Positions 1-48,020 of a DNA stretch of 64,000 nt are shown here, piece by piece. Numbering within the stretch: the first letter of the stretch is position 1; each line of letters starts with the position of its first letter. Source of the DNA: Clostridia bacterium (GTDB taxonomy: Bacteria; Bacillota; Clostridia; Oscillospirales; CAG-272). The position numbers and the translations under genes were made by a program. The notes beneath the pieces are model-generated. The model did not search any database and was not told the origin of the DNA. It worked only from the letters and a program-made list of their open reading frames with translations. The stretch covers positions 18,453-82,452 of the forward strand of contig JAFWYJ010000040.1 of assembly GCA_017517745.1 (NCBI GenBank), written 5' to 3'.

Positions 1-986
1 AATTCTGCGCGGCAACGGGATGTGACGCAGAAGCAATGAAGGACGATCCCGAATGTGCCGCTTGGTTCAGTGAGAAGATCGAGAAGGCAAAGATCGCGCT
101 GACACAGAAGCAATCCACCTCGCTGACTCCTTCCTTTGAGGGAAGCAAGGCTAAGGTTGAGATCACCAGAGAGAAGTTTGATGAGATCACCAGGGGTCTG
201 TTCGACCAGACCATTTATCTTGTTGACCAGATGCTCAATGACAAAGGCATGAACATCGTGACCGACATCGATGAGATCATCCTCGTGGGCGGTTCTACCA
301 GAATGCTCCAGATCGAGGAGGGACTCCAGCTCCACTATAACAAGCCCATTTCCAAGTTTGACCCCGACAAGGCGGTTTCCAACGGTGCGGCACTGGTTGC
401 AAGCGGTGCAAGCCTTGAGGAAAACCTGGATATGCCTCCCGTAATGCCCGCAGGCGGCGACGCTTTCGGCGGCTTTGACAGCCCCAGCCTCGGTGGCGGA
501 AGTACCTTCGAGGACAAGAGCGGAAACACCAACCAGATCGTTGAGGTTTGCACCAAGTCTTACTGCCTCAGATATTACAACGGCGGCAAGGAGACCTTCA
601 TCAACCTGGTCAAGAAGGATGAGCCCAAGCCCGCGATCGGAACGACCAAGACGATCATTCCCGGTCTGGTGCTTGGTGGCGGTGATTCCAACGGAATGAC
701 CAACGAAGTTGCTCTTCTGATCATGGAGAATGACAGCCGTGACGATCACGTGGAGCGCGAGAACTGCGTGGAGCTTTACGAAGAGGTTCCGATTATGCTT
801 GCAGAGCCCGTATCCGCGTCCTCTCAGGTTGAGATTCAGCTTTACGTCAACATCAGTGGCGAGTTGAAGCTGACCTTGATCGAGACTGCAACCGGCAGAC
901 AGTACGAGATGATCCCCGTTCGTAAGGGCGGCGATACCAACAGTATCGGTATGGATGCTGCAACCGGATTTACTTTGGTGGGCTAA
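1..986 (+). CDS. Non-canonical Hsp70/DnaK-family protein, C-terminal portion (5' end outside window)
   Basis: The frame is open back to base 1, so the ATG at 36 is internal. Hsp70 nucleotide-binding-domain motifs are present: IILVGGSTRMLQI and DPDKAVSNGAALVA. A Gly/Pro-rich linker follows, then a short beta-rich domain (VEIQLYVNISGELKLTLIETATGRQYEM) resembling the Hsp70 SBD-beta. There is no helical lid or EEVD tail. Confidence 0.8.
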   Translation, partial: FCAATGCDAEAMKDDPECAAWFSEKIEKAKIALTQKQSTSLTPSFEGSKAKVEITREKFDEITRGLFDQTIYLVDQMLNDKGMNIVTDIDEIILVGGSTRMLQIEEGLQLHYNKPISKFDPDKAVSNGAALVASGASLEENLDMPPVMPAGGDAFGGFDSPSLGGGSTFEDKSGNTNQIVEVCTKSYCLRYYNGGKETFINLVKKDEPKPAIGTTKTIIPGLVLGGGDSNGMTNEVALLIMENDSRDDHVERENCVELYEEVPIMLAEPVSASSQVEIQLYVNISGELKLTLIETATGRQYEMIPVRKGGDTNSIGMDAATGFTLVG

Positions 987-1041: not shown

Positions 1042-1074
1042 TTCACTATTTATTAATAAGTTGAGGTGTTTTTC

Positions 1075-3192
1075 ATGGGAATCAGCGTTGGAATTGATTT
1101 GGGAACAACTTACTCGGCGGTTGCCACCTTTGACAAGGCAACGGGAACCGTCAAAATTCTGAAGAATGACATCGGCGAGGACTGCACGCCCTCGGTTGTC
1201 TGCATTGAGGACGGCGAGGTGACCATCGGTCAAGCGGCGAAGGATCTGCAGGCGGCGGGCAACGTCAACACTGCGGCGTTCTACAAGAGCATGATGGGCG
1301 AGCCGAACTTCAGCTGTTACATCGATGGGCAAAGCTTTTCCGCGGAGAATCTTTCCGCAGCGTTTCTGCGCGGCCTCAAACAGGCTGTCGAGGAGGCGAA
1401 CGGAGTCACGATCGACAGCGCGGTCATCACGGTTCCCGCCTATTTCAACGAGGCACAGCGCCAGGCAACCCTTCGTGCAGGAGAGGCGGCAGGCATGCGG
1501 GTTCTCAAGCTCATCAACGAGCCGACCTCGGCAATCATTGCCTACGGTCTGACGGGGCAGGGAGAGAAGAACGTCATGGTCTATGACCTTGGCGGCGGAA
1601 CCTTTGACGTCACCATTGCACACATCCGCGGCGCAAACGTGGACGTGCTTGCCACCAACGGCAACCATCAGCTCGGCGGCAAGGATTGGGATGCTGTGAT
1701 CGTGGAGGAGGTCGCTTCTCGTTTTTACGATCAATTCGGAGTCAACGTTCGTGACTACGAGGACGTCATGAACGAGCTGGCGGTCAAGTGCGAAAAGACC
1801 AAAAAGGTGCTCACCAACGTTCCCGTGACACAGATCAGCGTGCAATGCGAGGGCTTTTACGGAAAATACGACATCTCAAGAGAATTCTTTGAAGAAAGAA
1901 CCCAAACGCAGCTGGCGGAAACCACGCTGCTCATTCAAAAATGCTTTGATGAGATCTCTCGGCAGAGCGGCAAGTCCTTTGGCTGGACGTCGCTGGATGA
2001 GGTGGTTCTCGTCGGAGGCTCGACCAGAATGCCGCAGATCAGCAAAATGATTACAGAGGCCTTTGGTCGTCCTCCCATCATCATTGGCAACAAGGTGGAT
2101 ACCATCGTTGCCTCGGGTGCGGCAATGCAGGCAAGCATTTGCAACGAAGGCTCGATCACGCTCAGCGCGGCTTCGGGCTTTGTCAGAAACACCAATACCG
2201 CTCCCGGCGCTCCGGCTCCCACCCTCACGATCTGCGGCGATGCGATCAAGGACGTGACTTCTCACAGCCTTGGCATGCTTGCCTTTTTGGAAGAGAAGAG
2301 CCTGGATCTGATCAACAGTATCATCATCCCCAAAAACTCCGCGATCGGAGAAGCACAGGGCAGATGGTACAAATCACACGCGGATAAGATCTGCGTACAT
2401 GTTCTGCAGGGCGAGTCCGACAATCCTTACGATTGTACCTTCCTCTATTCCTTCACCATCACCGGCTTGAAGGCAGGGCAGGAGAATCGCGTGCAGGTCT
2501 TCTTCCTCTACAACCCCAGCGGTATGGTAGAGGTCAGTGCGCAAGATGAAATGGGAAGAGATCTCCCCGTCAAGAAGGAGCAGGGTGCAGGTCTTGCGCT
2601 TTCGGCAGGGCGCTCTCTGGATCAGATCATCGCAGAGGTTCGCCGCGAGAAGGAAGAGGCGATGCGCAGACCTCCTCTGGACGTCACGTTCGTTGTGGAT
2701 ACGTCGGGAAGTATGGAAGGTCGCCCCCTCGATGAGGCAAAAAAATCGATTCAAGAATTCTTGGCGCAGCTTGATCAAACCGATGCCAAGATCTCGATTC
2801 TTAAATTCTCCGATTCTTGCGATTGGAAGTGTTATCAAACAGAAATCAGCAAGCGTCCTTTTATTCAAAAGGCAATTCAATCTTTGGAGGTGGACGGCGG
2901 AACCACTGCTACACCGCTTGGAGATTTCGCCAAAAAGCAGGGATTCCATAAGATTGACGGAAAGATTCTCGTGGTCTTGACCGACGGTGAATGGGAACAT
3001 CAGGGATTTGAGATCATGTCGGCGCAATCCCTCAAGAAAAAGGGCGTGATCATTTACGCCGTTGGAATTGGCGATGCCGATTTCGATTTTCTCTCGAAGA
3101 TCGCCTCGAACGGCGGCGCGAAGAAGATCGATTTGAGCAGCTTGGCCGACACGTTCCGCGCGATCGCCTCCAGCATCGCAACACAATCTTAA
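1075..3192 (+). CDS. Hsp70-family ATPase fused to a C-terminal von Willebrand factor A (vWA) domain
   Basis: The ATG at 1075 sits 8 nt after TGAGG; the track start at 1066 is a GTG. Hsp70 motifs: GIDLGTTYS, DLGGGTFDV, VLVGGSTRMPQI. An SBD-beta-like segment follows (VHVLQGES...VQVFFLYNPSGMVEVSAQD). The C-terminal vWA has a full MIDAS: DTSGS (DxSxS), TATPLG, LVVLTDGEW. Confidence 0.85.
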   Translation: MGISVGIDLGTTYSAVATFDKATGTVKILKNDIGEDCTPSVVCIEDGEVTIGQAAKDLQAAGNVNTAAFYKSMMGEPNFSCYIDGQSFSAENLSAAFLRGLKQAVEEANGVTIDSAVITVPAYFNEAQRQATLRAGEAAGMRVLKLINEPTSAIIAYGLTGQGEKNVMVYDLGGGTFDVTIAHIRGANVDVLATNGNHQLGGKDWDAVIVEEVASRFYDQFGVNVRDYEDVMNELAVKCEKTKKVLTNVPVTQISVQCEGFYGKYDISREFFEERTQTQLAETTLLIQKCFDEISRQSGKSFGWTSLDEVVLVGGSTRMPQISKMITEAFGRPPIIIGNKVDTIVASGAAMQASICNEGSITLSAASGFVRNTNTAPGAPAPTLTICGDAIKDVTSHSLGMLAFLEEKSLDLINSIIIPKNSAIGEAQGRWYKSHADKICVHVLQGESDNPYDCTFLYSFTITGLKAGQENRVQVFFLYNPSGMVEVSAQDEMGRDLPVKKEQGAGLALSAGRSLDQIIAEVRREKEEAMRRPPLDVTFVVDTSGSMEGRPLDEAKKSIQEFLAQLDQTDAKISILKFSDSCDWKCYQTEISKRPFIQKAIQSLEVDGGTTATPLGDFAKKQGFHKIDGKILVVLTDGEWEHQGFEIMSAQSLKKKGVIIYAVGIGDADFDFLSKIASNGGAKKIDLSSLADTFRAIASSIATQS

Positions 3193-3204
3193 CGGGAGTT
3201 CACG

Positions 3205-6200
3205 ATGGCAAATAATATCAGAACACAAGAAGAATACAAAAAGCCGGAATATAACTATTTCATTGCCCTGAAGCTGGGCATCAAGGAAAAGAATACGGCA
3301 AACATCGAAAAAAGCATCAGCAAGACCTGCGGAAGCACCAAGGGAGACCTGATTTCCCGCCGTCTCATCGAGCTTCGACAGGACATGACCGAGATCATGG
3401 TCAACGATGCAACCTACAATCCGCAAACCAACAGCTACGTCCCCAATTCGGGAGGTCGCCAGAAGGAGGCGGATGCGGCAAAGGCACTCAAACTTGAGGA
3501 ATTGATGAAGCTCGTTTACAATATGTGTATGAGCAACGGACGTATTTTCAAGAGTACCCTCAACGAGCTTTGCATTGCCGCCAATAAAACGGCAGAATAT
3601 TTTACGCTTGACGAGCTGATCAAAAAATGCGATTCGCTCAAGGCGCAGGGAATCAAGTTCATCGACAACATGACCTCGGCAATTCCGTTCGCGGAGTTCC
3701 AGACGGCAGGTCAGTTGCTCGAAACCCCTCCCGCCAAGGCAGACCTTTACGAGTTTTTGGGCGTGAGTAAGACCGCGTCCGTTGCGGAGATCAGTGCCGC
3801 GAGAGCAAACGCGTATAACGAGGCGCAGAAAAAGAGCGACCTCAAGATCAAGCAGTCGGTTTCGGCTCTTTGCGCAAAGGTTGACGCCATTCTCACCAAG
3901 AGCCCCGATATCCGTAAGCAGTATGACTATTACATCCAGGTCAAGGAAACCGTATGGGATCAGTTCAAGATGAGAAAGACCTACGGTGCCAAGAGTATTT
4001 CGCTGGATGAATATTATCAGTTTGCGGAAGAGCTGCAGCGCGTGCTTTCCATCAAAATCGACGAGGTCGAGGAGATGCTGGGCGCGGGACTGAAGTTCTA
4101 CGGTCTGGTAGTCGCGGGTGACGAGGGTGACGGAAGTGCCAAGGAAAAATTGGGCATTCCCGAGCTGGAGCTTTGTCCCTATCCCGATTGCGGTCAGATC
4201 TATCGCGCGGGAGCCAAGGCATGCCCGCATTGCGGCAAGCCGCTTGAAATCCTTTGCTGGAACTGCGGCAATCAGGTGCCCTTTACCGTCAAGCACAAGA
4301 CTTGTAGCCATTGCGGCGCCGCGCATGACGGCAAGGATCGCTATGAAGCGGTTTCGCGCGAGATCGATGCGCTTTTGCGCGCGAGCGTGTGCGATATTCC
4401 GAAGCTGCAGGCTGCACTCATGACTTTGAAAAATCTCGTTCCCAACGATAAGGGGGATGGAAAATCCACCATTTCCAAGAAGGTGGCGCAATGCGAAAAA
4501 ACCATTGCGGATAAAATCAAAGAAGAGGAAACAACGGGCGAGAAGTACCGCGCCGACGAAAAGCTGGTGCAGGAACAGATCGCTCTGAAGAATCTGATGA
4601 CCGCGGCGAGCATGGTGAGCAATATGCGCCGTGCATATCCCACCTACAACGCGGCAAACACCCAAGCGCTCGCCAATTCGATTCAGGCGACGATCTCCAA
4701 GGCGCAGGCAGGACTTGAACAGGTCAAGCGTTATGCGGCGCAGGGGAATGAGGCCATGGTGATCGATTCCGCCTCCAAGGTGCTGGAGATCTGTGCCGAC
4801 TATCTTGAGGCGAAGCAGTTCCTCCAAAAGTTCCCGCCTAAGACGCCCTCTGCCCCCGTGATCTCTGCGTCGGATGACGGCAAGGTTCATCTGGAGTGGA
4901 GAAAAGAAGGGGATCAGAAGATGGTGACCTACACGATCGTCAAAAAGATCGGAACGGCACCGCAGAACGTCAAGGACGGCGCTCTGGTCGAGGAAAATCT
5001 CGAGATCAACTTCTATGAGGACAGCAACATTGTTTCCGCCACGCCCTATCACTACGCGGTATATGCTACCCGTTGCGGCGTGAATTCCGGATTGCTCGTG
5101 TTCCCGTCGTCCATTCAGGTGTTTGGAGACGTTGCCAACATCCAGCAGGAGATCCTGCCCGGCAAGATCAGCGTGCATTGGGATGCACCGCAGAATTTTG
5201 CAAGCATCGACGTCTGGAAGAAGGAGGGAACTATTGCTCCTCTCAAGGCGGGTGACGGCACCAAGCTTTCCGGCACGAAGGACGGCTTCGTAGACGAGGA
5301 TTGCAAGGGAGAAAACAGCTACCTCATCATTTGTACCTACAAGACCGCAGAGGGTGTGAAGTGCTCTCGCGGAATTACGCATACCTTTAAGAAATACGAC
5401 ATGATCGAGCCTCTGCGCGAGGTCAAGCTGACACAGAACACACAAACCGAGTTCTGTCTGTCCTGCAAGAATCCTTCGGACGAGAAGCTCCGTGTGGTGT
5501 TCAGCAAGAACAAGCTTCCTTGCCGCGCCGACACCGTTTTGCAGATGATGGATTACAACACCTATATCAAGGGTGGAACCACATTGCCGATCTTCTACGA
5601 TAATGACGGCGCGACCTGCTTCAATCTGCCTGCGAACGCGATGGGATACGTGTACGTGTTGGTTTACAACGATCAGCTCTTCTGCGCATCGGCTCCGATC
5701 GCCGCCAATGCGCTCGCCGGCATCACCAGCCTCTCCTATGAGGAGCAGAACGCGGGCGTGAAGATCAAGGGTAACCTGAATCCCGCAACCAAGCGCGTGA
5801 TCGCCAAGATCAGCGATACGGCTTTTGCAAAATCGATCAATGACAAGGGCGAGCAGATCGCCATCACCAAAGAACAGTTTGAGAGAGACGGCGGTTTTGT
5901 GCTCAAGCTCAAGACGAATGCTTCGCACTATATTTCGGTGTTTGCCGAATTGGATCTGGAGGGACATGTCACCACGTCCTACGGCACGCCGTTGGAGAAT
6001 GTGATCGACCTGCGCGAAAAGGTTACCGTGCAGTATTGCATGGAATTCACCGTGTCGCAATCCAAGCCTTTCAAGATGACGCTGAAATTTGCGGCGGATC
6101 AGCCCGTGGATCTTCCCGACATGCTGTTGATGAAAGGCGTACCGCGGCCTCTGAACAAGAGCGCCGGAACGCTGGTGGAGCGCGTGAGCGGTGTGGCACT

Positions 6201-6342
6201 GAAAAAAGGCCTCTTCTCCTCGCGTTATACGGCAAAGATCACCCTGACCGTCCCTGCAGACAGACCGAACATGAGGTTCATTCTGTTTACGGCTGACGAT
6301 CACGTCAAACATGCCAAGCTCAAAGAGGTTACGTCTCTGTAA
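3205..6342 (+). CDS. 1045-aa multidomain protein: degenerate J-like domain (no HPD), double zinc ribbon, coiled coil, FN3-like beta domains
   Basis: Residues ~178-243 (DLYEFLGVSKTASVAEISAARANAYNEAQKKSDLK...ILTKSPDIRKQYDYY) follow the J-domain helix I-IV pattern, but the HPD position reads KKS. The zinc ribbons are CPYPDC..CPHC and CWNC..CSHC (nt ~4174-4317). FN3-like signatures are PSAPVISASDDGKVHLEW...YHYAVYA and ISVHWDAP...YLIICTY. The gap to the upstream gene is 12 nt. Confidence 0.75.
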   Translation: MANNIRTQEEYKKPEYNYFIALKLGIKEKNTANIEKSISKTCGSTKGDLISRRLIELRQDMTEIMVNDATYNPQTNSYVPNSGGRQKEADAAKALKLEELMKLVYNMCMSNGRIFKSTLNELCIAANKTAEYFTLDELIKKCDSLKAQGIKFIDNMTSAIPFAEFQTAGQLLETPPAKADLYEFLGVSKTASVAEISAARANAYNEAQKKSDLKIKQSVSALCAKVDAILTKSPDIRKQYDYYIQVKETVWDQFKMRKTYGAKSISLDEYYQFAEELQRVLSIKIDEVEEMLGAGLKFYGLVVAGDEGDGSAKEKLGIPELELCPYPDCGQIYRAGAKACPHCGKPLEILCWNCGNQVPFTVKHKTCSHCGAAHDGKDRYEAVSREIDALLRASVCDIPKLQAALMTLKNLVPNDKGDGKSTISKKVAQCEKTIADKIKEEETTGEKYRADEKLVQEQIALKNLMTAASMVSNMRRAYPTYNAANTQALANSIQATISKAQAGLEQVKRYAAQGNEAMVIDSASKVLEICADYLEAKQFLQKFPPKTPSAPVISASDDGKVHLEWRKEGDQKMVTYTIVKKIGTAPQNVKDGALVEENLEINFYEDSNIVSATPYHYAVYATRCGVNSGLLVFPSSIQVFGDVANIQQEILPGKISVHWDAPQNFASIDVWKKEGTIAPLKAGDGTKLSGTKDGFVDEDCKGENSYLIICTYKTAEGVKCSRGITHTFKKYDMIEPLREVKLTQNTQTEFCLSCKNPSDEKLRVVFSKNKLPCRADTVLQMMDYNTYIKGGTTLPIFYDNDGATCFNLPANAMGYVYVLVYNDQLFCASAPIAANALAGITSLSYEEQNAGVKIKGNLNPATKRVIAKISDTAFAKSINDKGEQIAITKEQFERDGGFVLKLKTNASHYISVFAELDLEGHVTTSYGTPLENVIDLREKVTVQYCMEFTVSQSKPFKMTLKFAADQPVDLPDMLLMKGVPRPLNKSAGTLVERVSGVALKKGLFSSRYTAKITLTVPADRPNMRFILFTADDHVKHAKLKEVTSL

Positions 6343-6354
6343 TCTCAACAAACG

Positions 6355-6415
6355 CTCCGCCGCGCCCGCAGAGCGGGGCGGCGGAGGAATACCGATGAAA
6401 GGATGGAGAACATGA
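6355..6415 (+). promoter_or_regulatory. GC-rich hairpin overlapping a GGAGG, plus a 6-codon mini-ORF whose stop overlaps an in-frame ATG of the next gene
   Basis: CTCCGCCGCGCCCGC (6355-6369) pairs with GCGGGGCGGCGGAG (6373-6386) with one bulge, and no U-tract follows. GGAGG (6383-6387) lies 7 nt upstream of the ATG at 6395. That ATG opens MKGWRT-stop, and its TGA (6413-6415) overlaps the ATG at 6412-6414, which is in frame with the 6403 ORF. Confidence 0.3.
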
Positions 6416-7749
6416 TTACCGGAAACACCACTGTTCGCGTGATCGAGGGAAACCGATTGAACGATACCGTGCCCGAGGCGGCAAAGCAACGTCAACAGCC
6501 AACCCCGTCCAACCCTCGTCCGATCAACATACTTTTCAACGGTAAGAACGGGAAGGGAATGCCCGATCAGTTTGTCCTGACCGAGCGATTGCTCAGCCAG
6601 CATCTGATGCTCATCGGAGGCATCGGTTCGGGCAAAACCAACACCTTCAATCAAATCATGCAAAACATCGCGCCGCAGCTTTCCGCGCGGGACGTGATGA
6701 TTATTTTTGATACCAAAGGCGATTTTCTCAAGGAGTTTTATGCTCCCGGAGACATCGTCATCAGCAATGATACCACAGCAAGAGGAGCAAACGGCCCCGA
6801 CTATTGGAACATTCTCGCAGAGCTTGAGGATGACGATTCGCTTGAGGTCAACTGTGTGGAGATCGCCACGGCGCTCTTTGCCGACAAGCTGAGCGAGGGC
6901 GGAGATTCCTTTTTCCCAAACGCGGCAAAGGATTTGCTCACCGCCGTGCTGTATCATTTCGTCAAAAACCGTGCTCAGATTCGATCGAGCAACAAAACGC
7001 TCTCGGAATGTCTCAAAGGTGTGAATCACGAATGGTTTTTGGCTTTGCTGAATAAATATCCGCAGTTCAAGGCGATGAAGAGTTACATTCCGCAAGACGC
7101 GCCCGGTCAGGCGATCGGCGTGCTGGCGGAGCTTCAGCAGGTGGTGCGCCAGGTGTTCATCGGCAACTTTGCCAAAGAGGGAACACTTTCCGTGCGCAAC
7201 CTCGTGCGTCGCAAAGGCGGAAAAAAGATTTTCATTGAATATGATATCGGTATCGGCGGAATGCTTACACCGATTTACAGTTTGATGTTCGATCTGGCAA
7301 TCAAGGAGGCACTCTGCCGTTCCAAGAGCGACGGAAACGTGTTTTTCGTGGTGGACGAGTTCAAGCTTCTTCCCAACCTCAAGCACATTGACGACGCAGT
7401 CAACTTCGGCAGAAGCCTTGGCATCAAGTTTATGATCGGCATCCAGAACGTGGATCAGATCATCAAGGCGTATGATGAGCACATGGCGTTGAATATCTTT
7501 TCGGGATTTCTCAATCAATTTGCCTTCAAGGTCAGTGATCATTCCACAAGAGAATATATCAAAGAGCGTGCGGGGATGAATCGCAAGCTCACAATGTATA
7601 AAACGGTAACCGTCCAGGAATCGATCGAGGGAGCAAACGTCATCGAAGACTGGGACGTGGGAAATCTGAAGTTGGGGCAGGCTGTGGTCATGCTCAACAG
7701 CGCGGAACCCTTCGTATTCGGTTTCCCCGAATTCATCGGCAGGAGTTAG
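6403..7749 (+). CDS. Soluble FtsK/HerA-superfamily P-loop ATPase resembling type IV coupling proteins (VirD4/TraG/TraD-like), without an N-terminal TM anchor
   Basis: Walker A is LIGGIGSGKTN and Walker B is FFVVDEFKLL. Other T4CP-like blocks: GPDYWNILAE, FFPNAAKDLL, IKFMIGIQNVDQI. No hydrophobic N-terminus is present. The start could be 6412 (see the mini-ORF feature). Confidence 0.7.
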   Translation: MENMITGNTTVRVIEGNRLNDTVPEAAKQRQQPTPSNPRPINILFNGKNGKGMPDQFVLTERLLSQHLMLIGGIGSGKTNTFNQIMQNIAPQLSARDVMIIFDTKGDFLKEFYAPGDIVISNDTTARGANGPDYWNILAELEDDDSLEVNCVEIATALFADKLSEGGDSFFPNAAKDLLTAVLYHFVKNRAQIRSSNKTLSECLKGVNHEWFLALLNKYPQFKAMKSYIPQDAPGQAIGVLAELQQVVRQVFIGNFAKEGTLSVRNLVRRKGGKKIFIEYDIGIGGMLTPIYSLMFDLAIKEALCRSKSDGNVFFVVDEFKLLPNLKHIDDAVNFGRSLGIKFMIGIQNVDQIIKAYDEHMALNIFSGFLNQFAFKVSDHSTREYIKERAGMNRKLTMYKTVTVQESIEGANVIEDWDVGNLKLGQAVVMLNSAEPFVFGFPEFIGRS

Positions 7750-7751
7750 TT

Positions 7752-8966
7752 ATGGGATTCTTATTTGGAAACGGCGGCATTTTTGCCGCGTCCCCCGGCA
7801 GGGGTAACGTTGTGAGCCTCGACACGAGCCTCGGAAACACCATTCTCGTGGGCAATTCGCCCAGGGGCATTGAATCCGTGATGCGAAATTATCTCATCGA
7901 CGCGCTCAATAAGGGCAATGCGGTGGTGATTTTGCGCAACGGAGAGAACGGTTTTTCGGCATATCCGAGCGTGGTGAATATGCGCGGCAGAATCTATGAC
8001 GTTGACGTCGCAGAGGATCTTGGAGCGGAGCAGATCGATGGCTTTTCCGGTTATTCCGACCGTGAGCAGGACATGGCCATGCTGCAAACGATGGAGATGT
8101 ATAATCAGATCGATCCTGCAAAGAAGATGAAGTTCCAAAACTATATTTCCATTGTCCGCAGCCTGCTGGCCACGCGCAAAAAACGCTTGCGCCTGAACGA
8201 GCTGTATCAGTATAACGTTGATGAAGTGGAGATGCTCAATGCCTCCGCTCCCATCCCCGATGCGGAAAAGATGCGCAACGAGCGTTTCTTCAACAGTTTC
8301 CGCGCGGACATTTTTGAGTTTGAAACCTATTTTTATGAGTTTTCCAACAATGCCGTCGGACACATCCTCTCGGGCGCGAAATCGTTGGAGACGATCTTCG
8401 CGAGCAAGAACGTGATTGAAATCTCTTTTGATTTCAAGTCGCATGAAACCGACTCCAACGTCCTGCTTCACGCGCTGGTCAACGTGCTTGGAAAATTCAA
8501 CTGTGCGGCAGCCGGCAAAAGAGGCTTGACGGTGGCGGTCAACGAGATTCCCAACGAGAGCTTGGAGCAATCGGGACTGCAAAAGCTGATCAAAAATACG
8601 CCCAATTGCAACGTGATCTATTCGGTCGCGGACATTTCCAAACTGATCGAAAAGACCAACGATTGGATTGAGTACGCCGACAGCTATTTCTTCCTGAGAC
8701 AGACTTCGGACAAGAACAAGGAGTTCAGCTCAAGCTTCTTCGGTACATACGAAAAACAAAAGGTGAGCACCAATCAAAGCCGTTCCACTCCCTCCTTCTG
8801 GGATCGCCTGAACAATCGCGGCGCTGTGACCAGCACCAGCGGAACCACGGTGACCACCGAAAAAGAACGTGTTTATCAGCCCGACGATTTTGCGGTGATG
8901 CCCGAAAACGAAGCGATTTATTTCTTCAAAAAAACCAATTCGCATAGCCGCATCAGGCTGTTCTGA
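7752..8966 (+). CDS. Paralog-like partner of the upstream ATPase with degenerate Walker motifs (predicted catalytically inactive)
   Basis: It starts 2 nt after the upstream stop. The Walker-A position reads VGNSPRGIES (no Lys-Ser/Thr) and the Walker-B position reads LTVAVNEIP (no Asp-Glu). The C-terminus ERVYQPDDFAVMPENEAIYFFKK resembles the T4CP C-terminal block. The paralogy call was made by eye. Confidence 0.55.
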   Translation: MGFLFGNGGIFAASPGRGNVVSLDTSLGNTILVGNSPRGIESVMRNYLIDALNKGNAVVILRNGENGFSAYPSVVNMRGRIYDVDVAEDLGAEQIDGFSGYSDREQDMAMLQTMEMYNQIDPAKKMKFQNYISIVRSLLATRKKRLRLNELYQYNVDEVEMLNASAPIPDAEKMRNERFFNSFRADIFEFETYFYEFSNNAVGHILSGAKSLETIFASKNVIEISFDFKSHETDSNVLLHALVNVLGKFNCAAAGKRGLTVAVNEIPNESLEQSGLQKLIKNTPNCNVIYSVADISKLIEKTNDWIEYADSYFFLRQTSDKNKEFSSSFFGTYEKQKVSTNQSRSTPSFWDRLNNRGAVTSTSGTTVTTEKERVYQPDDFAVMPENEAIYFFKKTNSHSRIRLF

Positions 8967-8980
8967 AAGGGAGGGTTCTC

Positions 8981-9688
8981 ATGAGCAGAAACGATCAGGA
9001 CAAAACCAAGGAATACAGAGACGGCGAGGCGATCGAAAAACGCTTCAACCGTTGCAAAGATCATCCGAACGAAAGATATGCCGCGATGGAGGACTACCGT
9101 GATAATCTCCAAAAGCAAAAAGACGCTCTTGCGGACATGAAGGACAAAAACAGTCCCGAATATCAGCAGCGGAAGGGAGAGATTGCGGAGCAGGAAAGCA
9201 AGTACAAGGAAATGTGGAACGAGGCTCAGAAATCCTACGGCGAGAATCGGCAGCAGGAAAAAGTGAACCAAGTCGATCGCTTGAGAGCCGAAAACCGTGA
9301 GCTTTCTTCGAAGATGGAAAAGGCGGCGGAAAAAGGAAACAAGAGTCAATATGATTCGCTGCGCCAAAAGTACGAGACCAACCTCAAGGCACAAGAGGGC
9401 GTTTGCAGAGATCTGCGAGAAGATCGTGTCGAACATCGTGACACCACGTCGCAGCAAAGATCGGCAATGGTGGATAGTGATCGCCATATGGCGGAAAAAG
9501 TGAGAAGAGACTCCAAGGACAAGAATGACAAATACAAAAATCAAGCACAAGCGAGTCAAAAAGAAGCAATGAAGAAGCAGGACGATAAGGCGCTCGATGA
9601 GAAACGAATGACCTACGGCATTTCGGAGGAGGAAATCAACGCCGAGCGCCGAACGAGAGAGCATGAGCGCAACGAGCATTGCAGATAA
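8981..9688 (+). CDS. Hyper-charged (K/E/D/R/Q/N-rich) 235-aa protein, paralog 1
   Basis: A strong RBS (GGGAGGG) precedes it. It aligns end to end with the next ORF through shared blocks: DKNSPEY, KYETN-KAQEG, YG-SEEEINAER. There are almost no hydrophobic stretches. Confidence 0.7.
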   Translation: MSRNDQDKTKEYRDGEAIEKRFNRCKDHPNERYAAMEDYRDNLQKQKDALADMKDKNSPEYQQRKGEIAEQESKYKEMWNEAQKSYGENRQQEKVNQVDRLRAENRELSSKMEKAAEKGNKSQYDSLRQKYETNLKAQEGVCRDLREDRVEHRDTTSQQRSAMVDSDRHMAEKVRRDSKDKNDKYKNQAQASQKEAMKKQDDKALDEKRMTYGISEEEINAERRTREHERNEHCR

Positions 9689-9745
9689 GCCCGCTATCTT
9701 GAAAATTTCGCATCCCTCATCAGATTCTTCCAAGGAGGATGGCAA

Positions 9746-10456
9746 ATGAAAAGCAAAGACAAAAACGACATTATCAGCAAGCGGTTTGATGCCTATGCAA
9801 AAAGTGGCGATCACACCGAGATGTATGCCGCAAAGGCGGAGTATGACGAGAATCTGCGCGATCAAAAGAATGAGCTGGAGGATATGAGGGACAAGAACAG
9901 CCCCGAATATCGGCAGAAGAAAGAAGAGATCGAAAAGCAGGAAGAACGCTCCAAGGAAATGAGCCGTGAAATCGATAAACAATACAAAAAGGAGCACGGC
10001 TACAACGATCAAAACGCCAAGAAGGAGGATCTCGAAAAACTCAAACGCGAAAATCAAGGCATTTCGCGTGAGATGCACCGCGCGGTGGAGAAGGGCGACA
10101 CCAAGAAATTTGACGCGCTTTCTCAAAAATATGAGACCAACATCAAGGCGCAGGAGGGGATCAGCAAAGAGCTGAAGACCAACGGCATCGACCATGAGGA
10201 TACCAGCTACCGCCAAAGAGTTGATTTGAAAAATCAAAACAACGATATGAGCGATAAACTCAGAGCATCTTCCAAACCCAAGGATCGGGAAAATGCACAG
10301 AAATACATGAATCGGACGCGCGAGTGCGAGCAGAAGGAGCTCAAGAAGAAGGACAACGCCGAGCTTGACCGCATGAAAAACAACTACGGTCTCTCGGAAG
10401 AGGAAATCAACGCCGAGCGCAAAAAAATGGAACACGAGCGCGAAAAGTACAGATAA
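9746..10456 (+). CDS. Hyper-charged 236-aa protein, paralog 2 (tandem duplicate)
   Basis: RBS AAGGAGGA precedes it. Length, composition and conserved blocks match those of 8981-9688. Confidence 0.7.
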   Translation: MKSKDKNDIISKRFDAYAKSGDHTEMYAAKAEYDENLRDQKNELEDMRDKNSPEYRQKKEEIEKQEERSKEMSREIDKQYKKEHGYNDQNAKKEDLEKLKRENQGISREMHRAVEKGDTKKFDALSQKYETNIKAQEGISKELKTNGIDHEDTSYRQRVDLKNQNNDMSDKLRASSKPKDRENAQKYMNRTRECEQKELKKKDNAELDRMKNNYGLSEEEINAERKKMEHEREKYR

Positions 10457-10516
10457 GCCCCCCTGAGTCAATCGAAAATCCAAATCAAGCAAATCATATA
10501 GAAAGAGGAAAAAACC

Positions 10517-11623
10517 ATGGCAAAATTCACATGCCCGTACTGTTATGCCACTCATACGCTGGATACCTGCGGAATGAAGTGCTCCTATAACATCACGGGT
10601 ACCGACGTCACCTGCAAGAAAAACCTTCCAAAGGATGCTGAAGGTTGGATCCCTCAGCTCTACAAAAAGCAGTGCCTCGCGTGCAAGGATGCGAGAAAGC
10701 GCATCTATTGTCCCACCGTGGAAAAGGAAATTCCCACCGAGTTCCTCTCGGGCGAGAGTCTTCCCATCGCACTCGTGGGCGCAAAGGCATCGGGCAAATC
10801 CAACTACATCGGCGTGCTGATCGATGAGGTCAAAAGAAAGATGGCACGGAGCTTTAACACCACGCTCAGCGTGAGCTGTGACGAGACCTCCCGTCGATTC
10901 TACGATCAGTTCTACAAGATCCCGCTCTACACACACGGAGAGGTGGTCGCCGCCACCGACGCTGGAGAAATGCCTCCCATGATCTTCCCGTTGCGCTTTA
11001 TGGATCGCAAGGATCGCATCATCAACAGCGCGACGCTGACCTTCTATGACACCGCAGGAGAGAATCTTGACTCGGATGAGGAAATGCTGATCTACAATCG
11101 CTACATCCCCAATGCAAAGGGAATCATCCTGCTTCTTGACCCGCTGCAGGTACCCGGTATTCGTCAGCAACTCGAGGGAAAAATGCAGCTTCCTGCCATG
11201 AACACCGACGTGACCGAGGTTCTCAGCCGCGTGGTCGAGAATATCCGAAGCGTCAAGAACATCAAGGGAACCATCAACATCCCGCTGGCTCTGGCATTCA
11301 CCAAGCTCGACGTGCTGGAAAAGTTTGACATCATTTCTGAGGACAGCCTCTTGCGAGAGGAATCTCGCCATCTTGAGCTGGGCGCGTTCTCCATGTCGGA
11401 TTTCGACAGCTGTACCATTCAGATGAGAGACATTCTGGAAAACTGGCTGGATGCCGAGTTCACCCAGTTGGTCAAAAACTTCTCCAAGTACGCTTTCTTC
11501 GGCGTGTCGGCATTGGGAGAAGTGCCTGAGAATAACACTGTTTCTTCCATCAAGCCCAAGCGTGTGCTTGACCCGCTGCTTTGGCTGTTGGCGGAAAACA
11601 AATACATCAAGAAAGTGAAGTGA
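10517..11623 (+). CDS. Zinc-ribbon-fused TRAFAC-class GTPase (soluble)
   Basis: N-terminal Cys clusters are CPYC...C..C and CLAC...C. The G1 motif is GAKASGKS, G3 is FYDTAGE (DxxG), and G4 is FTKLD (an NKxD variant). RBS is AGAGGAAAAAACC-ATG. Confidence 0.8.
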   Translation: MAKFTCPYCYATHTLDTCGMKCSYNITGTDVTCKKNLPKDAEGWIPQLYKKQCLACKDARKRIYCPTVEKEIPTEFLSGESLPIALVGAKASGKSNYIGVLIDEVKRKMARSFNTTLSVSCDETSRRFYDQFYKIPLYTHGEVVAATDAGEMPPMIFPLRFMDRKDRIINSATLTFYDTAGENLDSDEEMLIYNRYIPNAKGIILLLDPLQVPGIRQQLEGKMQLPAMNTDVTEVLSRVVENIRSVKNIKGTINIPLALAFTKLDVLEKFDIISEDSLLREESRHLELGAFSMSDFDSCTIQMRDILENWLDAEFTQLVKNFSKYAFFGVSALGEVPENNTVSSIKPKRVLDPLLWLLAENKYIKKVK

Positions 11624-11630
11624 TTCATTG

Positions 11631-14318
11631 ATGAAAGCGGCTCAGTATATGTACACGTCTTGGAAAAATGCCCCCAATCACGGATTCAGTCTCTATTCGA
11701 TGACGCCGGGACTCTCCGCGACCGACAGCGAGGACATTTCCAAAATGATGAAGTACGTTTTGCAGCCCGGAATGCCGCGTGATCCTTCCGATGAGGAAAT
11801 CGCGTCTGTTCTGCCGCGAAACGTCGCGTTCTTCCCACTTTCCTCGGGTAGGTACTGCCTCGCACAGGCGGGCTACGTGGGACGTGAATACCGAGGCTTT
11901 GAGGACGGCGGCCGTCTTGGAAACTATCTTTTACACGCCTATATTTTGGACGATGTGAAGGACGTTCTTCCCATGTCTTTCGTGGGAGACGACATTTTCC
12001 GCTACGACCTGACGAAGGAGGAGTGGCAGGCAACCAATCCCGCGCCGCTTCCCATTGTGGAGCTTGCTCCCGTCGGAAAGATGCTGACCCAAAGCGAGAT
12101 CGCGTCGTTCTTCGATGCAACTCGCATCGAAACGCTGGAAAAGCTGGTTCAGGCGATCATCACTGCATCGGCAAACGGAAAAACCGTCTTTTTCAATGAC
12201 GAGAATGCAAACATGCGCTTTTGGTACAAGGCTTTGGCGGTCTGTCTGCCGGTCAGCCTTTCGAAAACGGCGTTCAACACGTACTCGCTTTCGATGAGCC
12301 TGCCTGTCGGTGTTTCTCCTTGCTGCAAGCTCAGCCTCATGAACGTTTCGGTCAGCAAGGATCCCGCCATTCCGATCACCGCGCCCAACCTCGCGGACGA
12401 GACGCGAAAGGGCAACTTTGTCATCGACTTGGTGCGTGGAGCTTATAGCCCCGTTACGGTCGGTTCTTATGCCAAGGCTGTTTGCGCGAAATTCAAGGCG
12501 AATCTCTTTGACGCGGTCAATTTCGCGAAGAAGATCGACGTTACGGCGGCAAGATATTCCTGCACCGTCGATCAGGCGATGGATATCCTCTGCTTCTCCG
12601 AGGGCAAGCTGGATCAGTTCCCGAGCATTGGTGACGTGCTGAGGGTGATCCGTCTGCTTGGCGACGGCACGCCGGATGCACAGATGCAGAACAGCATCAC
12701 CCGATTTGCCGAGCGCATTCTGACGGGCGCATATCCTTACGGAAATGAGCTTTGCGAGGCAATCAAAAACGTGGTTTATCCCAACGTTGCCGATGATTGG
12801 AAGCAGAAGTTGCTCGCTTACGTGATGCAGACCGCACTCTCCATGAATGCACCGAGCAAGGCAGCGTTCGCAAAGGCGGTCGATTCCGCGATCCCGTGCG
12901 ATAAATTGACGGCGGCACGTTATATTTACGATAACAAGATCTATGACCGCTTGTTGGGCGGAGATCTTTATCAGATTCACTATCTGGCAACCATGACTGT
13001 CGAGAATTATACCGCGCTGCAGACGGTATATGGCAAGCTTCCCACCATGATGCTGAATACGGTGGTGTCCAAGTACATCGGACAGAACGATTTCGCTTCG
13101 TTGGATGAGCTGGTAGCGCTCGCTCCCGGACTCACGGGCAGTGCGATCGCAGTGGTGATCTGTCACTATGCAGAGAAGAAGACGCTCGGTCAGATCTCGG
13201 TGGATGCCTTCTTCCGTGTCCTTCCCAAGGCAACGCTTTCGAGCGATGCTCTGGTCACTCTCATGACCGAGGCAATCGCGCTGTGGGGAAGGGATGCCGA
13301 TTTCTGCCGAAAGTACGAGGCGTTTGCTGCGACGAATGCGCAGGCGGATGCCGCACTCCGCGCAATTCCCGCGTGTGTGCCGTTCTTTGACGAGATGGAG
13401 GTGCATCGCTTCCGCTCGAGCCGCCCGACGATGGACGGACTTTGCAATTACTTCATGCGGATCTATGCCAAGAATCCCGATGACACGGCGTTCGAAGCAA
13501 AGCTGACCGAATATTTGAAGCCTTTGGATTGGAAGACTTGTCTGCGTGAATCGATCACGGTTTACTCCAGATGCTTCAAGCCGAAAAAAGGCTGGACTCC
13601 GAACGATTTGCGCATCGTGCAAGTCTTGCGCTGGAATGTGTTGGAAAAACCGGAGCGCCGTGAGTTTTCCAAGGCGCTTCTGTCGGAAGTAAATCTCCGC
13701 ACGATGGTGGACGGATTCGTGAAGGATACCGAGATGAGAGGTTGCGGCAAAGATGCCTTCTATGCGATGATCTCCGCCTTTGCCGAGATCATTGCCAAGC
13801 CTGCACTCCAGGCAGTGAAGGCCATCGAGACACAAACGCTTCTCGCGGGACTTCTGGTCTCCAAGGAAACGGCGGCAATCTTCAATCAAAACCTTGCCGA
13901 GGAGTATCTCATCTACGTCACAGAGGCAATCAAGGCGTCCCGAAAAGAGGATCATCCCTTGTTGACAACGGCACTCCTTCCTCTGACAGCCGATGAGCCT
14001 TCCTTCAAAAAGGCGATCGCCGCGATTCTTTCTTCCAACGAAAAGGATGCGCAGAAGCGCAGTTTGCGACTGCGGGCAGTATTGCTTCTGCACGTTTCCA
14101 CCGATGCCAAGCCGCACAAGGCGCTCAAGGCAGTATTTGAGGATGACTTCCTCAATTGCTCCAAGAAGGAACGCTTGAACGTGCACAAGGCGACGGCAAA
14201 GGCGACACAAGACAAAGATCTGTTTGCAAAGAGTCTGGAATATGTGACAGACTTCAATGCAAAGCACAAAACCGGTTTCTTTGACAAGCTGAAGGGCTTG
14301 TTTGGAAATAAAAAATAA
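11631..14318 (+). CDS. 895-aa mostly helical protein of unknown function; candidate GTPase-associated (GAP1-like) scaffold
   Basis: The ATG at 11631 follows the GTPase stop by 7 nt. The N-terminal pattern QYMYTSW...HGFSLYSMTPGLS and GRLGNYLLHAYIL recalls, from memory, the N-terminal module of GTPase-associated protein 1 families. This functional label is tentative and was not verified by any search. Confidence 0.6.
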   Translation: MKAAQYMYTSWKNAPNHGFSLYSMTPGLSATDSEDISKMMKYVLQPGMPRDPSDEEIASVLPRNVAFFPLSSGRYCLAQAGYVGREYRGFEDGGRLGNYLLHAYILDDVKDVLPMSFVGDDIFRYDLTKEEWQATNPAPLPIVELAPVGKMLTQSEIASFFDATRIETLEKLVQAIITASANGKTVFFNDENANMRFWYKALAVCLPVSLSKTAFNTYSLSMSLPVGVSPCCKLSLMNVSVSKDPAIPITAPNLADETRKGNFVIDLVRGAYSPVTVGSYAKAVCAKFKANLFDAVNFAKKIDVTAARYSCTVDQAMDILCFSEGKLDQFPSIGDVLRVIRLLGDGTPDAQMQNSITRFAERILTGAYPYGNELCEAIKNVVYPNVADDWKQKLLAYVMQTALSMNAPSKAAFAKAVDSAIPCDKLTAARYIYDNKIYDRLLGGDLYQIHYLATMTVENYTALQTVYGKLPTMMLNTVVSKYIGQNDFASLDELVALAPGLTGSAIAVVICHYAEKKTLGQISVDAFFRVLPKATLSSDALVTLMTEAIALWGRDADFCRKYEAFAATNAQADAALRAIPACVPFFDEMEVHRFRSSRPTMDGLCNYFMRIYAKNPDDTAFEAKLTEYLKPLDWKTCLRESITVYSRCFKPKKGWTPNDLRIVQVLRWNVLEKPERREFSKALLSEVNLRTMVDGFVKDTEMRGCGKDAFYAMISAFAEIIAKPALQAVKAIETQTLLAGLLVSKETAAIFNQNLAEEYLIYVTEAIKASRKEDHPLLTTALLPLTADEPSFKKAIAAILSSNEKDAQKRSLRLRAVLLLHVSTDAKPHKALKAVFEDDFLNCSKKERLNVHKATAKATQDKDLFAKSLEYVTDFNAKHKTGFFDKLKGLFGNKK

Positions 14319-14339
14319 AATAAAGAAAGAGGTAGTATC

Positions 14340-14528
14340 ATGGAAATCATTGGACACATTTTAATGATTATTCTTTACATTTGTTACCTACTGTTCATGA
14401 CCTTGTTGCTCATCGCGATCGCAGCGATCACAACGGCAGTCGGTGTGGGTATGGGACTTGTAAAGGGAATCAACCACGCGCTCGAAATTTATTTCGGAAC
14501 ATTAATTGAAGAGATTGGAGATAGATGA
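14340..14528 (+). CDS. 62-aa small membrane protein
   Basis: RBS is AGAAAGAGG. One or two hydrophobic helices are present (ILMIILYICYLLFMTLLLIAIAAITTAVGVGMGL). It lies in operon context. Confidence 0.55.
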   Translation: MEIIGHILMIILYICYLLFMTLLLIAIAAITTAVGVGMGLVKGINHALEIYFGTLIEEIGDR

Positions 14529-16032: not shown

Positions 16033-17109
16033 ATGCTACAAAAGGAATATTGGCGCACAAAGCTTTCCCCGGCGGATCAGAAGACCTATGATCTGATTCG
16101 CGCGGGGCTGGCATCCCAGCGGGAGCGAACCGCCATTCCGACCTTTTCGGGAGATCCGAACGGCATTTTGCCGATCTATCAGGCGATCTGGAACGATCAC
16201 CCCGAACTCTATTGGCAGACCTATGCACCGGGCGTTGCGCAAGCGGCATCTTCGTTTGGCGGATTGTTTGGCTCGGGGGGCGCACCTCGGTTTGAGGTCA
16301 TCCATCCGACGCTTTATCAACCCAAGGAAACGGCAAGCATCAACGCGTCCATTCGGAACGTGCTTGCGAAGTTGGATGCGTTGAAGGCACAGCCAAAGAT
16401 CGATCAGATCATCGCCGCGATTCTGCATCTTGCAAAGCACGTAACCTACGAGATCAACAACGAAAAGAACCAGAATGCGGCGTCAGCCCTCTACTTCGGA
16501 CGTGCGCAATGCACGGGATATGCCAAGGCGTTCAAGCTGATGATGGATCATCTCGGCATCCCCTGCATATTGGTTTCGGGATCGGCAATGGCAAGAGAGG
16601 GGGATCCCTCCTCCATGGGACCGCATGCGTGGAATCTTGTTGAGCTGGACGGTGCTTGCTATCACCTGGACACCACCGCGGTGGCAGGAAACGTCGATGA
16701 CCGCGAGGATATTTTGGCAAGTCTGCTGTTTCTCGGAAAGGATGGGGATTTTGAGAAAAACCATGTGTGGGATCGCAAATCGATTCCCGCATGTCCCAAT
16801 CATTCTCCCTACCGTGCGACAAAGATCATTCCCTCACCGGGCGCAGGGATGCCCTCCAAGCCCGATGATGCAAGCGTTACGCAGATCTCCTCGCTTTACG
16901 AATTGCGGATGCTTTTGGCACGCGAGTTTGCAAGCGAGAAAACTTGCACGTTTGCTTTTCGCATGAACATGAGTCTGCCGACCGAAAAACTTCATCCTCA
17001 TGTGATGAGCAGCATTCAGGCAGCGCTCAATCAAGCAAAAAAATCATCGAGCGTAGAGACGACTTGTCAGGGAACGCTCTATCAGCTGACGAGAACCGTG
17101 AGCCCGTAA
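16033..17109 (+). CDS. Transglutaminase-like cysteine peptidase superfamily protein
   Basis: A Cys-His-Asp arrangement is present: RAQCTGYAKAFKLMMDHLGIP, then GPHAWNLVELDGACYHLDTT. This is typical of the transglutaminase core. Confidence 0.75.
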   Translation: MLQKEYWRTKLSPADQKTYDLIRAGLASQRERTAIPTFSGDPNGILPIYQAIWNDHPELYWQTYAPGVAQAASSFGGLFGSGGAPRFEVIHPTLYQPKETASINASIRNVLAKLDALKAQPKIDQIIAAILHLAKHVTYEINNEKNQNAASALYFGRAQCTGYAKAFKLMMDHLGIPCILVSGSAMAREGDPSSMGPHAWNLVELDGACYHLDTTAVAGNVDDREDILASLLFLGKDGDFEKNHVWDRKSIPACPNHSPYRATKIIPSPGAGMPSKPDDASVTQISSLYELRMLLAREFASEKTCTFAFRMNMSLPTEKLHPHVMSSIQAALNQAKKSSSVETTCQGTLYQLTRTVSP

Positions 17110-17141
17110 GACAAAAATAACGAAATTGGAGATATCATCCG

Positions 17142-17414
17142 ATGGCAAAAGGAACAAATCGTGTTGTGGCAGGGGATTACCGCGGAGCAGAGGTGATCTG
17201 GAACGGAGCAGAGCTTCTAATCTCGGGATTGATGTTCACCGCCTGCAAGATAGACAAGACCACGGTCGCCCATCACACCCTGGTGGGACAGACGAGCGGT
17301 CTGTTCGGAACGAACGTCGGATACAACGTTTCGGTGGATTTCACCAACGGCAAAAGATCCATGCTTTCGCTCGACCAACAATATTATGATCTTTTGATCA
17401 GAATTTTATTTTAA
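17142..17414 (+). CDS. 90-aa small beta-rich protein, unknown function
   Basis: RBS is TGGAGAT. It lies in operon context and has no recognisable motif. Confidence 0.5.
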   Translation: MAKGTNRVVAGDYRGAEVIWNGAELLISGLMFTACKIDKTTVAHHTLVGQTSGLFGTNVGYNVSVDFTNGKRSMLSLDQQYYDLLIRILF

Positions 17415-17429
17415 GGAAAGGGATCGATT

Positions 17430-18341: not shown

Positions 18342-18356
18342 TCGGAGGCGACGGAG

Positions 18357-47910: not shown

Positions 47911-48020
47911 TGGATTTGCCTCCTGACTTTTTAGAAGAATGAAAATATTGTAACACGTTTTTTTAAAGTGAATATGAACATCCACTCATTATTTTTATGA
48001 TTTTTGTAAACGAAAAATCG

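Follow-up and report, generated by a model that had tools for sequence, protein, structure and literature searches.

Hsp70 chaperones follow the rule that the His-Pro-Asp (HPD) motif of a J-domain fires their ATPase. This raises a question at a locus of a Clostridia bacterium (GCA_017517745.1), where a gene behind two Hsp70 genes encodes a large protein with J-domain-like text and no HPD: is it a true J-domain homologue, and what could it do beside Hsp70s? We analysed a window of 64,000 nt from this assembly (contig JAFWYJ010000040.1, positions 18,453 to 82,452, forward strand), which had previously received a sequence-only reading, and focused on the product of this gene, here termed the J-like/FN3 protein after its J-like modules and its fibronectin type III (FN3, FNIII) repeats. 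The module behind the original question, JL2, is a genuine, diverged J-domain homologue, and HPD is missing from all 205 family proteins checked. The protein carries in addition a probable second J-like domain (JL1), and its gene is part of an operon with GrpE, two divergent Hsp70s (Hsp70a and Hsp70b) and a GTPase-GAP1 system.

A J-domain homologue without HPD

As a single sequence, JL2 matched the Pfam DnaJ family (PF00226) with E=0.01 and 16.4 bits, under the gathering score of 27.8, and the match spanned helix I to early helix II only. A Pfam scan of the whole protein returned the zinc ribbon as sole match, and an NCBIfam scan returned none. We gathered 61 homologues (30–92% identity, ~1030–1045 amino acids (aa) each), aligned 32 of them, and searched a JL2 family profile built from 30 homologues (aa 165–262) against all PDB sequences. 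Almost only J-domains were recovered, including all of the top 38 matches, and the best match, Tid1 (E=2.2e-7), was aligned across J-domain residues 3–71. The full-length AlphaFold2 (AF2) model has a mean predicted local distance difference test (pLDDT) of 87 and a predicted template modelling score (pTM) of 0.40; single domains are thus modelled well, their relative placement is not. In a separate AF2 model of the JL2 region (pLDDT 78), JL2 consists of helices I (181–185), II (193–208), III (213–231), and an extended IV (234–260). Foldseek searches of the JL2 model against PDB returned J-domains for all of the top ~45 matches, with target-normalised template modelling scores of 0.5–0.76, root mean square deviations of about 2 Å, and a probability of 1.0; the E-values were modest (0.05 upward), as expected for a helical domain of 70 residues. 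The core residues of the J fold, L181, Y182, L185, Y240, and Y243, are kept in the alignment. JL2 is therefore, by profile and by fold, a diverged J-domain homologue. The sequence-only reading had pointed to J-domain-like text at aa 178–243 and had named a profile or Foldseek comparison as the check; the text is present as quoted, it lies in a four-helix J fold, and both comparisons matched.

The same reading had described the module as lacking HPD, and this extends well beyond the window. HPD was absent from the J-like module of the window protein and its 61 close homologues, and none of 205 family proteins scanned contained HPD within the first 330 aa. The more specific statement that HPD is replaced by KKS was correct in that KKS(D) at 209–212 forms the helix II–III loop in the model, but HMMER pairs HPD with N205-E206-A207 instead. 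Neither site carries a motif that is conserved across the family. Other J-side determinants have changed as well. DnaJ contacts DnaK through R22, K26, R27, K48, K51, and H33/P34/D35 (review by Mayer, PMC8215388). In the profile–PDB alignment, S197, A201, N202, S220, and A224 of JL2 take the places of the five basic residues, so that all five positions are non-basic; helix II has a mean net charge of -0.7 in the family and is thus not basic.

Matched changes were seen on the Hsp70 side. DnaK Arg167, the hydrogen-bond partner of the HPD aspartate D35 (PMC8215388), corresponds to Lys148 in Hsp70b of the window, and this position is Lys in 12 of 14 Hsp70b and 9 of 13 Hsp70a sequences and Arg in only one. 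As read from the alignments, the acidic patch E206/D211/E217 appears as H/G/D in Hsp70b and R/G/K in Hsp70a. The operon Hsp70s have not preserved the hydrophobic VLLL linker between the domains. The catalytic residues of the nucleotide-binding domain (NBD) appear to be retained, judged by eye from the alignments, and a nucleotide cycle is expected for these Hsp70s because a GrpE is present. The GrpE-like gene, which lies just outside the window, and the full Hsp70a were found upstream on the window's own contig. Several features of the Hsp70s vary. At the site of the DnaK VLLL linker, Hsp70b has an insertion of ~30 aa between NBD and the beta part of the substrate-binding domain (SBD-beta). 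The Hsp70b of one related locus (L014), 800 aa long, has another C-terminal domain in place of vWA or added to it. Some loci encode three or four Hsp70 paralogues, one of which (L005:6439-7548) is an NBD on its own.

A probable second J-like domain

The earlier reading counted one J-like module in the protein; we found two. In the AF2 model, JL1 comprises helices at 18–21 (short) and at 31–41, 49–66, and 84–111 (all long), with a beta-hairpin insert at 70–79 ahead of the last one, an arrangement that would fit a J fold. Profiles of the N-terminal domain were made for the subfamily of the window protein (A3) and for a sister subfamily (A4), whose members are proteins of 980–1015 aa with the same architecture. 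The two profiles matched each other in hhalign (98.75%, E=1.5e-16). A4 searched against PDB recovered J-domains in 14 of 14 matches, the best with E=2.3e-4 and aligned over the full length, and matched JL2 in hhalign with 87.8% probability (E=3.3e-6). A3 itself gave no J-domain match in PDB and only 4% probability against JL2. The assignment of JL1 is transitive, via the sister subfamily, and hence less certain than that of JL2; on these profile comparisons, JL1 is probably a second J-like domain that has decayed further.

With a cut-off of E<=1e-30, a profile search of the whole library recovered 737 representative clusters, most of which stem from uncultured bacteria. The sister proteins share the N-terminal pattern N-[FY]-Y-x-L-L-x-L ... 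E-W-S-x-x-R-N-H-P-[TS]-K-G ... V-M-x-D-x-x-x-R, in which the loop E-W-S-x-x-R-N-H-P-[TS]-K-G is conserved in the N-terminal ~70 aa of sister proteins P0099–P0205. Among the 205 scanned family proteins, the N-terminal J-like domain contains HPT in 19 and HPS in seven. The N-H-P-[TS]-K-G loop looks like a variant of HPD that is shifted by ~4–5 residues in the HMMER alignment. In the window subfamily, JL1 has lost HP[TS], and the degenerate remnant of the loop reads, for example, G-S-T-K-G-D.

A small alpha/beta unit comes after each J-like domain, and the strand-helix-helix-strand order of the unit behind JL2 recurs in the unit behind JL1, which suggests a duplicated module in the AF2 model. The double J-like module also occurs by itself. 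Three related loci contain complete standalone genes of ~300 aa with the order JL1, alpha/beta, JL2, alpha/beta, without zinc ribbon or FN3 (L008:9989-10897, L016:6224-7150, L017:5527-6405), each between Hsp70b-vWA and the full-length gene. This position next to the Hsp70s suggests that the double module works as a unit. Two tandem copies of it were present in P0082, P0084, and P0085 of the representative search.

Zinc ribbon, helical region, and FN3 array

The J-like modules are followed by a double zinc ribbon, detected with Pfam DZR (PF12773) at aa 327–371 (E=2.4e-6, 28.0 bits, gathering score 27.3). Its eight cysteines, C324, C329, C340, C343, C351, C354, C367, and C370, are invariant, and it is the best-conserved segment of the protein (mean pairwise identity 0.62 versus 0.33–0.46 elsewhere). 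The two CxxC...CxxC ribbons of the sequence-only reading are thus a real double ribbon, except that the first knuckle is Cx4C. A TerY-C-like signal in the same segment had E=0.06, far under threshold. One sister-subfamily member is annotated in NCBI merely as 'zinc ribbon domain-containing protein'.

The stretch that had been read as a coiled coil is, in the model, a region of 165 aa with seven helices, which separates the zinc ribbon from the C-terminal half. At least two FN3-like sandwiches had been claimed; both stretches are beta-sandwiches in the model, and three further ones bring the total to five across aa 549–1045. With the full model, Foldseek matched tandem FN3 arrays at E-values of 5e-10 to 1e-7, among them those of thick-filament proteins (5e-10), fibronectin 7–10 (2e-8), LAR, gp130, and the leptin receptor. 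Within the window subfamily, the FN3 repeats show no excess variability over the other segments outside the zinc ribbon (mean pairwise identity 0.35–0.46). Faint precomputed marks of Fn3_SaeA_2nd and Fn3_SaeA_6th (PF25832, PF25836) were noted in L024, L026, and L029 and in P0032, P0047, and P0051, a hint that the multi-FN3 protein SaeA may be a relative of this FNIII component. They were not reproduced at E<=0.1 when three relatives were rescanned, and a literature search on SaeA gave nothing relevant.

Gene order and related loci

The gene had been placed directly downstream of the Hsp70 pair, and indeed its open reading frame (ORF) starts 12 nt beyond the Hsp70-vWA stop codon. The operon has the order GrpE, Hsp70a, Hsp70b-vWA, J-like/FN3 protein, VirD4-like ATPase, zinc-ribbon DO-GTPase, GAP1-N2, membrane DO-GTPase, and transglutaminase. 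In 17 of 17 related genomic loci (L001–L017), the gene likewise directly follows Hsp70b-vWA, and where the contig reaches, these loci encode a GrpE-like protein, Hsp70a, extra Hsp70s in some cases, Hsp70b-vWA, the J-like/FN3 protein, zinc-ribbon GTPase, GAP1, transmembrane GTPase, and transglutaminase. They derive from metagenome-assembled genomes (MAGs) of uncultured Clostridia, Eubacteriales, Christensenella, Lachnospiraceae, and Erysipelotrichaceae, several of them from rabbit, deer, and goat gut samples. We also examined six loci of the sister subfamily (L024–L029). L024 and L026 have the full set of GrpE, Hsp70, and Hsp70-vWA upstream, and L028 has a partial Hsp70 upstream; L027 is uninformative on upstream Hsp70, as its contig starts at the J-like/FN3 gene. 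The other two loci are taken up below.

Table 1. Coordinates of the J-like/FN3 gene, its domains, and neighbouring operon features in the window
Feature	Position (nt)	Strand	Basis or remark
Hsp70a, 3' part (557 aa in full contig)	1..986	+	library scan, contig
Hsp70b: NBD, divergent SBD-beta, C-terminal vWA	1066..3192	+	library scan, alignment
Shine-Dalgarno GGGAG	3194..3198	+	1 nt past TAA 3190-3192; ATG at 3205 follows after 6 nt
J-like / double zinc ribbon / FN3 protein, 1045 aa	3205..6342	+	ORF
JL1 (aa 15-111), putative first J-like domain, strongly degenerate	3247..3537	+	transitive profile evidence, AF2 secondary structure
Small alpha/beta unit plus helix after JL1 (aa 112-175)	3538..3729	+	AF2; no family match
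JL2 (aa 178-260)	3736..3984	+	family profile, AF2 model, Foldseek
Small alpha/beta unit after JL2 (aa 261-305)	3985..4119	+	AF2 secondary structure
Low-confidence linker (aa 306-320; pLDDT <50 at 307-315)	4120..4164	+	AF2 model
Double zinc ribbon (aa 321-373)	4165..4323	+	Pfam DZR, eight invariant Cys
All-helical region, seven helices, 165 aa (aa 376-541)	4330..4827	+	AF2 model
FN3-like beta-sandwiches 1 and 2 (aa 546-640, 641-735)	4840..5409	+	AF2 model, Foldseek
Three more beta-sandwich domains (aa 736-838, 839-935, 936-1045)	5410..6339	+	AF2 model, Foldseek
VirD4/TraD-like P-loop ATPase, soluble	6403-7749	+	accessory insert 6403..10456
404-aa protein, faint TraG-D_C match	7752-8966	+	accessory insert 6403..10456
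Two paralogous highly charged 235-aa proteins	8981-9688, 9746-10456	+	accessory insert
Zinc-ribbon DO-GTPase2	10517..11623	+	PF19993, E=1.4e-6
GAP1 with GAP1-N2 and GAP1-M domains	11628..14318	+	PF20013, E=3.3e-17
Second DO-GTPase2, about four N-terminal transmembrane helices	14506-16023	+	E=7e-12
Transglutaminase-core (papain-like) protein	16033-17109	+	library scan

Of the loci examined, only the window, L005, and L010 carry the accessory insert. Its VirD4/TraD/TrwB-like ATPase is missing the usual N-terminal transmembrane helices, and the two charged paralogues are rich in K, E, R, D, and N and have no family match. The AT skew of 0.29 at 8001–10000, a region that covers the charged-protein genes, compares with about 0.0–0.19 elsewhere in the window and is raised because of A-rich Lys, Glu, Asn, and Asp codons. 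Elsewhere, the system is flanked by a VirD4-like gene (L025) or by HerA-like ATPases (L024, L026). The operon ends (16033–19298, + strand) with the transglutaminase-core protein, a multi-transmembrane protein of 303 aa, and a protein of 313 aa without transmembrane prediction or family match. The first two are kept in several related loci, and the transglutaminase-core protein may be an effector or an enzyme of processing. Upstream the operon is flanked by ArgRS and YebC, downstream by PBP5, PGI, and topoisomerase. PADLOC has no model for the J-like/FN3 protein or the core system components; its only match in the locus was the VirD4-like neighbour, to mad8/HerA.

No transmembrane segment (Kyte-Doolittle scan) or signal peptide was predicted for the J-like/FN3 protein, which is hence cytoplasmic. 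An antisense ORF of 1722 aa (2374–7542, - strand) was considered as alternative gene and rejected as a shadow ORF. TTA, CTA, and TCA make up only five of 3875 codons in the sense genes of the operon, none of them in 3205–6342, and with these codons nearly absent the in-register antisense frame stays free of stops. Further long shadow ORFs mirror sense genes at 8918–11371 and 11931–14357 and elsewhere, e.g., at 44734–47985 (all - strand). The ORF of 1722 aa is the longest of them, and such codon avoidance is a strong peculiarity for a genome of ~52% G+C.

Proposed function and alternative explanations

Kaur, Burroughs, Iyer & Aravind (eLife 2020, PMC7159879) described GAP1-N2-type DO-GTPase systems, in which a zinc-ribbon GTPase and GAP1 are accompanied by a fast-evolving protein of FNIII repeats and, in many cases, by another GTPase that bears transmembrane segments. 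They proposed that the FNIII component senses an invader and that the Hsp70s found in some of these systems form NTP-driven assemblies. Where the sequence-only reading saw an adaptor for the adjacent Hsp70s, the protein is not free-standing but the FNIII component of such a system with GrpE. The idea of a dedicated co-chaperone or scaffold for the Hsp70s survives in part: a J homologue without HPD follows two Hsp70 genes in the window and in 17 further loci, but one locus with the same architecture, L029, has no Hsp70 nearby.

On balance we lean towards a predicted FNIII scaffold, in which degenerate J-like modules tether the divergent operon Hsp70s without the HPD trigger. The J-like modules would serve as a docking surface that holds the Hsp70s on the scaffold, and the canonical signal that starts ATP hydrolysis by way of HPD would not come from them; a non-stimulating or otherwise non-canonical role is plausible from the residues lost. 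Hydrolysis and assembly could then be gated otherwise, by engagement of a client or of vWA or by the GTPase-GAP1 switch. The FN3 array and the zinc ribbon may contribute to target recognition or higher-order assembly, and zinc ribbon, helical spacer, and FN3 array together might provide the coupling to targets or assemblies as well as to the GTPase-GAP1 switch. This scheme of FNIII sensor and Hsp70 assembly follows the proposal of Kaur et al. (PMC7159879).

Several observations weigh against this scaffold model. At L029, no Hsp70 lies in the ~4 kb upstream or the 10 kb downstream of the J-like/FN3 gene, which is flanked by DO-GTPases on both sides, and L025, with the order VirD4-like (- strand), J-like/FN3 gene, GTPase, and GAP1-N2, is probably a second Hsp70-less locus, although its contig is only 9 kb long. 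The J-like module is thus not strictly tied to an adjacent Hsp70: the modules are constant in the FNIII component, and the Hsp70 set is not always local. The J-like modules may therefore work independently of Hsp70 or may rely on the housekeeping DnaK. The replacement of Arg167 by Lys is conservative, and Lys could still accept a partner. As the FN3 repeats are not extra variable, a hypervariable sensor is unsupported. A role of the system in conflict or immunity is itself a prediction only, and no PADLOC model covers it.

The Hsp70-less loci also speak for reading the J-like modules as relics, that is, as helical structural or oligomerisation units without Hsp70 contact, next to which Hsp70 and GrpE act as an independent accessory or effector module. 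The same architecture persists at L029 and probably L025, every known feature of Hsp70 contact is gone, and the double module is found standalone (~300 aa) and in tandem (P0082, P0084, P0085). We nevertheless regard this as unlikely, since the gene lies right behind Hsp70b-vWA in all 17 close loci, three loci have an extra standalone J-like module beside the Hsp70s, and the J core residues listed above for JL2 are maintained. An equally improbable reading is that the modules still stimulate their dedicated Hsp70s through a re-wired, co-evolved, HPD-free interface. Both sides have changed together (HPD and the basic face in the J-like module, Arg167 to Lys and the acidic patch in the Hsp70s), a conserved operon GrpE makes sense only with reasonably fast hydrolysis, and a distant subfamily keeps the N-H-P-[TS]-K-G loop in JL1. 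Stimulation was, however, abolished by replacement of the His or Asp of HPD in every system tested (PMC8215388), the helix II–III loop of JL2 is without any conserved motif in the family, and JL1 of the window subfamily has lost HP[TS] too.

Least probable among the alternatives is that the operon encodes a membrane-proximal housekeeping machine, e.g., for envelope remodelling, secretion, or a cytoskeleton-like function, rather than a conflict system, with the J-like/FN3 protein as structural scaffold. The housekeeping genes on both flanks, the membrane-anchored GTPase, the multi-transmembrane protein, the transglutaminase-core protein and the VirD4-like ATPase in the operon, and the lack of PADLOC matches for the core components would fit such a machine. 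The patchy distribution and the varying accessory content, with the VirD4-like insert in only three loci examined, speak against it, as do the organisational hallmarks of conflict systems that Kaur et al. reported for GAP1-N2 systems (PMC7159879).

A bolder version of the scaffold model, which we consider doubtful, is an HPD-independent J–Hsp70 pairing, in which the tandem J-like modules would permanently tether the specialised Hsp70s to the FN3 scaffold, and a cycle reset by a dedicated GrpE would be fired by GTPase/GAP1 or by the vWA-client contact instead of a J-domain. If this were true, the locus would encode a bacterial immune-type Hsp70 assembly machine, and the N-H-P-[TS]-K-G loop of the sister subfamily would be an intermediate form. 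The family has in any case kept the J fold beside dedicated Hsp70s and GrpE while HPD and contacts changed, and it provides a natural system for studying a J fold without HPD. The operon of ~19 kb is cloneable and could become the first experimental test case for the predicted DO-GTPase/GAP1 conflict systems.

Comparison with known systems

Canonical J-domain proteins (DnaJ/Hsp40, PF00226) share with the J-like/FN3 protein the four-helix J fold and a gene position beside presumed Hsp70 and GrpE, and JL2 keeps the helix I motif D-L-Y-E-F-L-G-V and the helix IV motif R-x-x-Y-D-x-Y. Unlike them, JL2 has neither HPD nor the basic helix II/III face for contacts with NBD and SBD-beta of Hsp70, its helix II–III loop is shorter, and its Pfam score is below gathering; the protein lacks a G/F region as well as a DnaJ-type client-binding domain. 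Loss of HPD from a retained J fold is known from mitochondrial Pam16/Tim16, which regulates or tethers an Hsp70 machine instead of stimulating it and works paired with the true J-protein Pam18. The likeness is an analogy only: there the partner bears HPD, whereas here two degenerate J-like modules lie in one chain, and no J-protein with HPD turned up in the operon, neither in the window nor in the related loci examined.

TerY-P/vWA-based and MoxR-vWA ternary conflict systems (PMC7159879) resemble the operon in combining an NTPase switch, vWA and zinc-ribbon modules, and variable effectors, but the window operon has no MoxR, kinase, or phosphatase. CoCoNuT systems (PMC11090510), which also have Hsp70-like domains, were rejected as the relevant class because they are built on McrBC and lack both a J domain and GrpE.

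The closest counterparts are the GAP1-N2 systems of Kaur et al. (PMC7159879). Their Hsp70/GrpE theme, which accounts for ~14% of neighbourhoods, chiefly those of Actinobacteria and Firmicutes, already included FNIII proteins fused N-terminally to a "DnaJ" domain. The window locus fits this theme feature by feature: zinc-ribbon DO-GTPase, GAP1-N2, a second transmembrane DO-GTPase, Hsp70 paralogues, GrpE, an FNIII-repeat protein with N-terminal "DnaJ" fusion, and a Firmicutes host. The J-like/FN3 protein hence belongs to a known class, itself purely predicted, and a literature search for subsequent studies of DO-GTPase/GAP1 systems, experimental or computational, gave none. Since the architecture was published in 2020, it is not new, and the gain is one of detail, not of kind. 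The main text of that study mentions 'DnaJ' once and 'HPD' not at all, and does not discuss the loss of HPD. The locus described here differs from the published theme in the missing HPD and basic face, the two J-like modules, the double zinc ribbon before FN3, the Hsp70b-vWA fusion, the VirD4-like insert, and the occurrence of the J-like architecture also without Hsp70. New with respect to the literature, where they had previously gone unremarked, are the family-wide loss of HPD, the non-basic state of the five DnaK-contact positions, the tandem J-like modules, and the matched changes in the Hsp70s.

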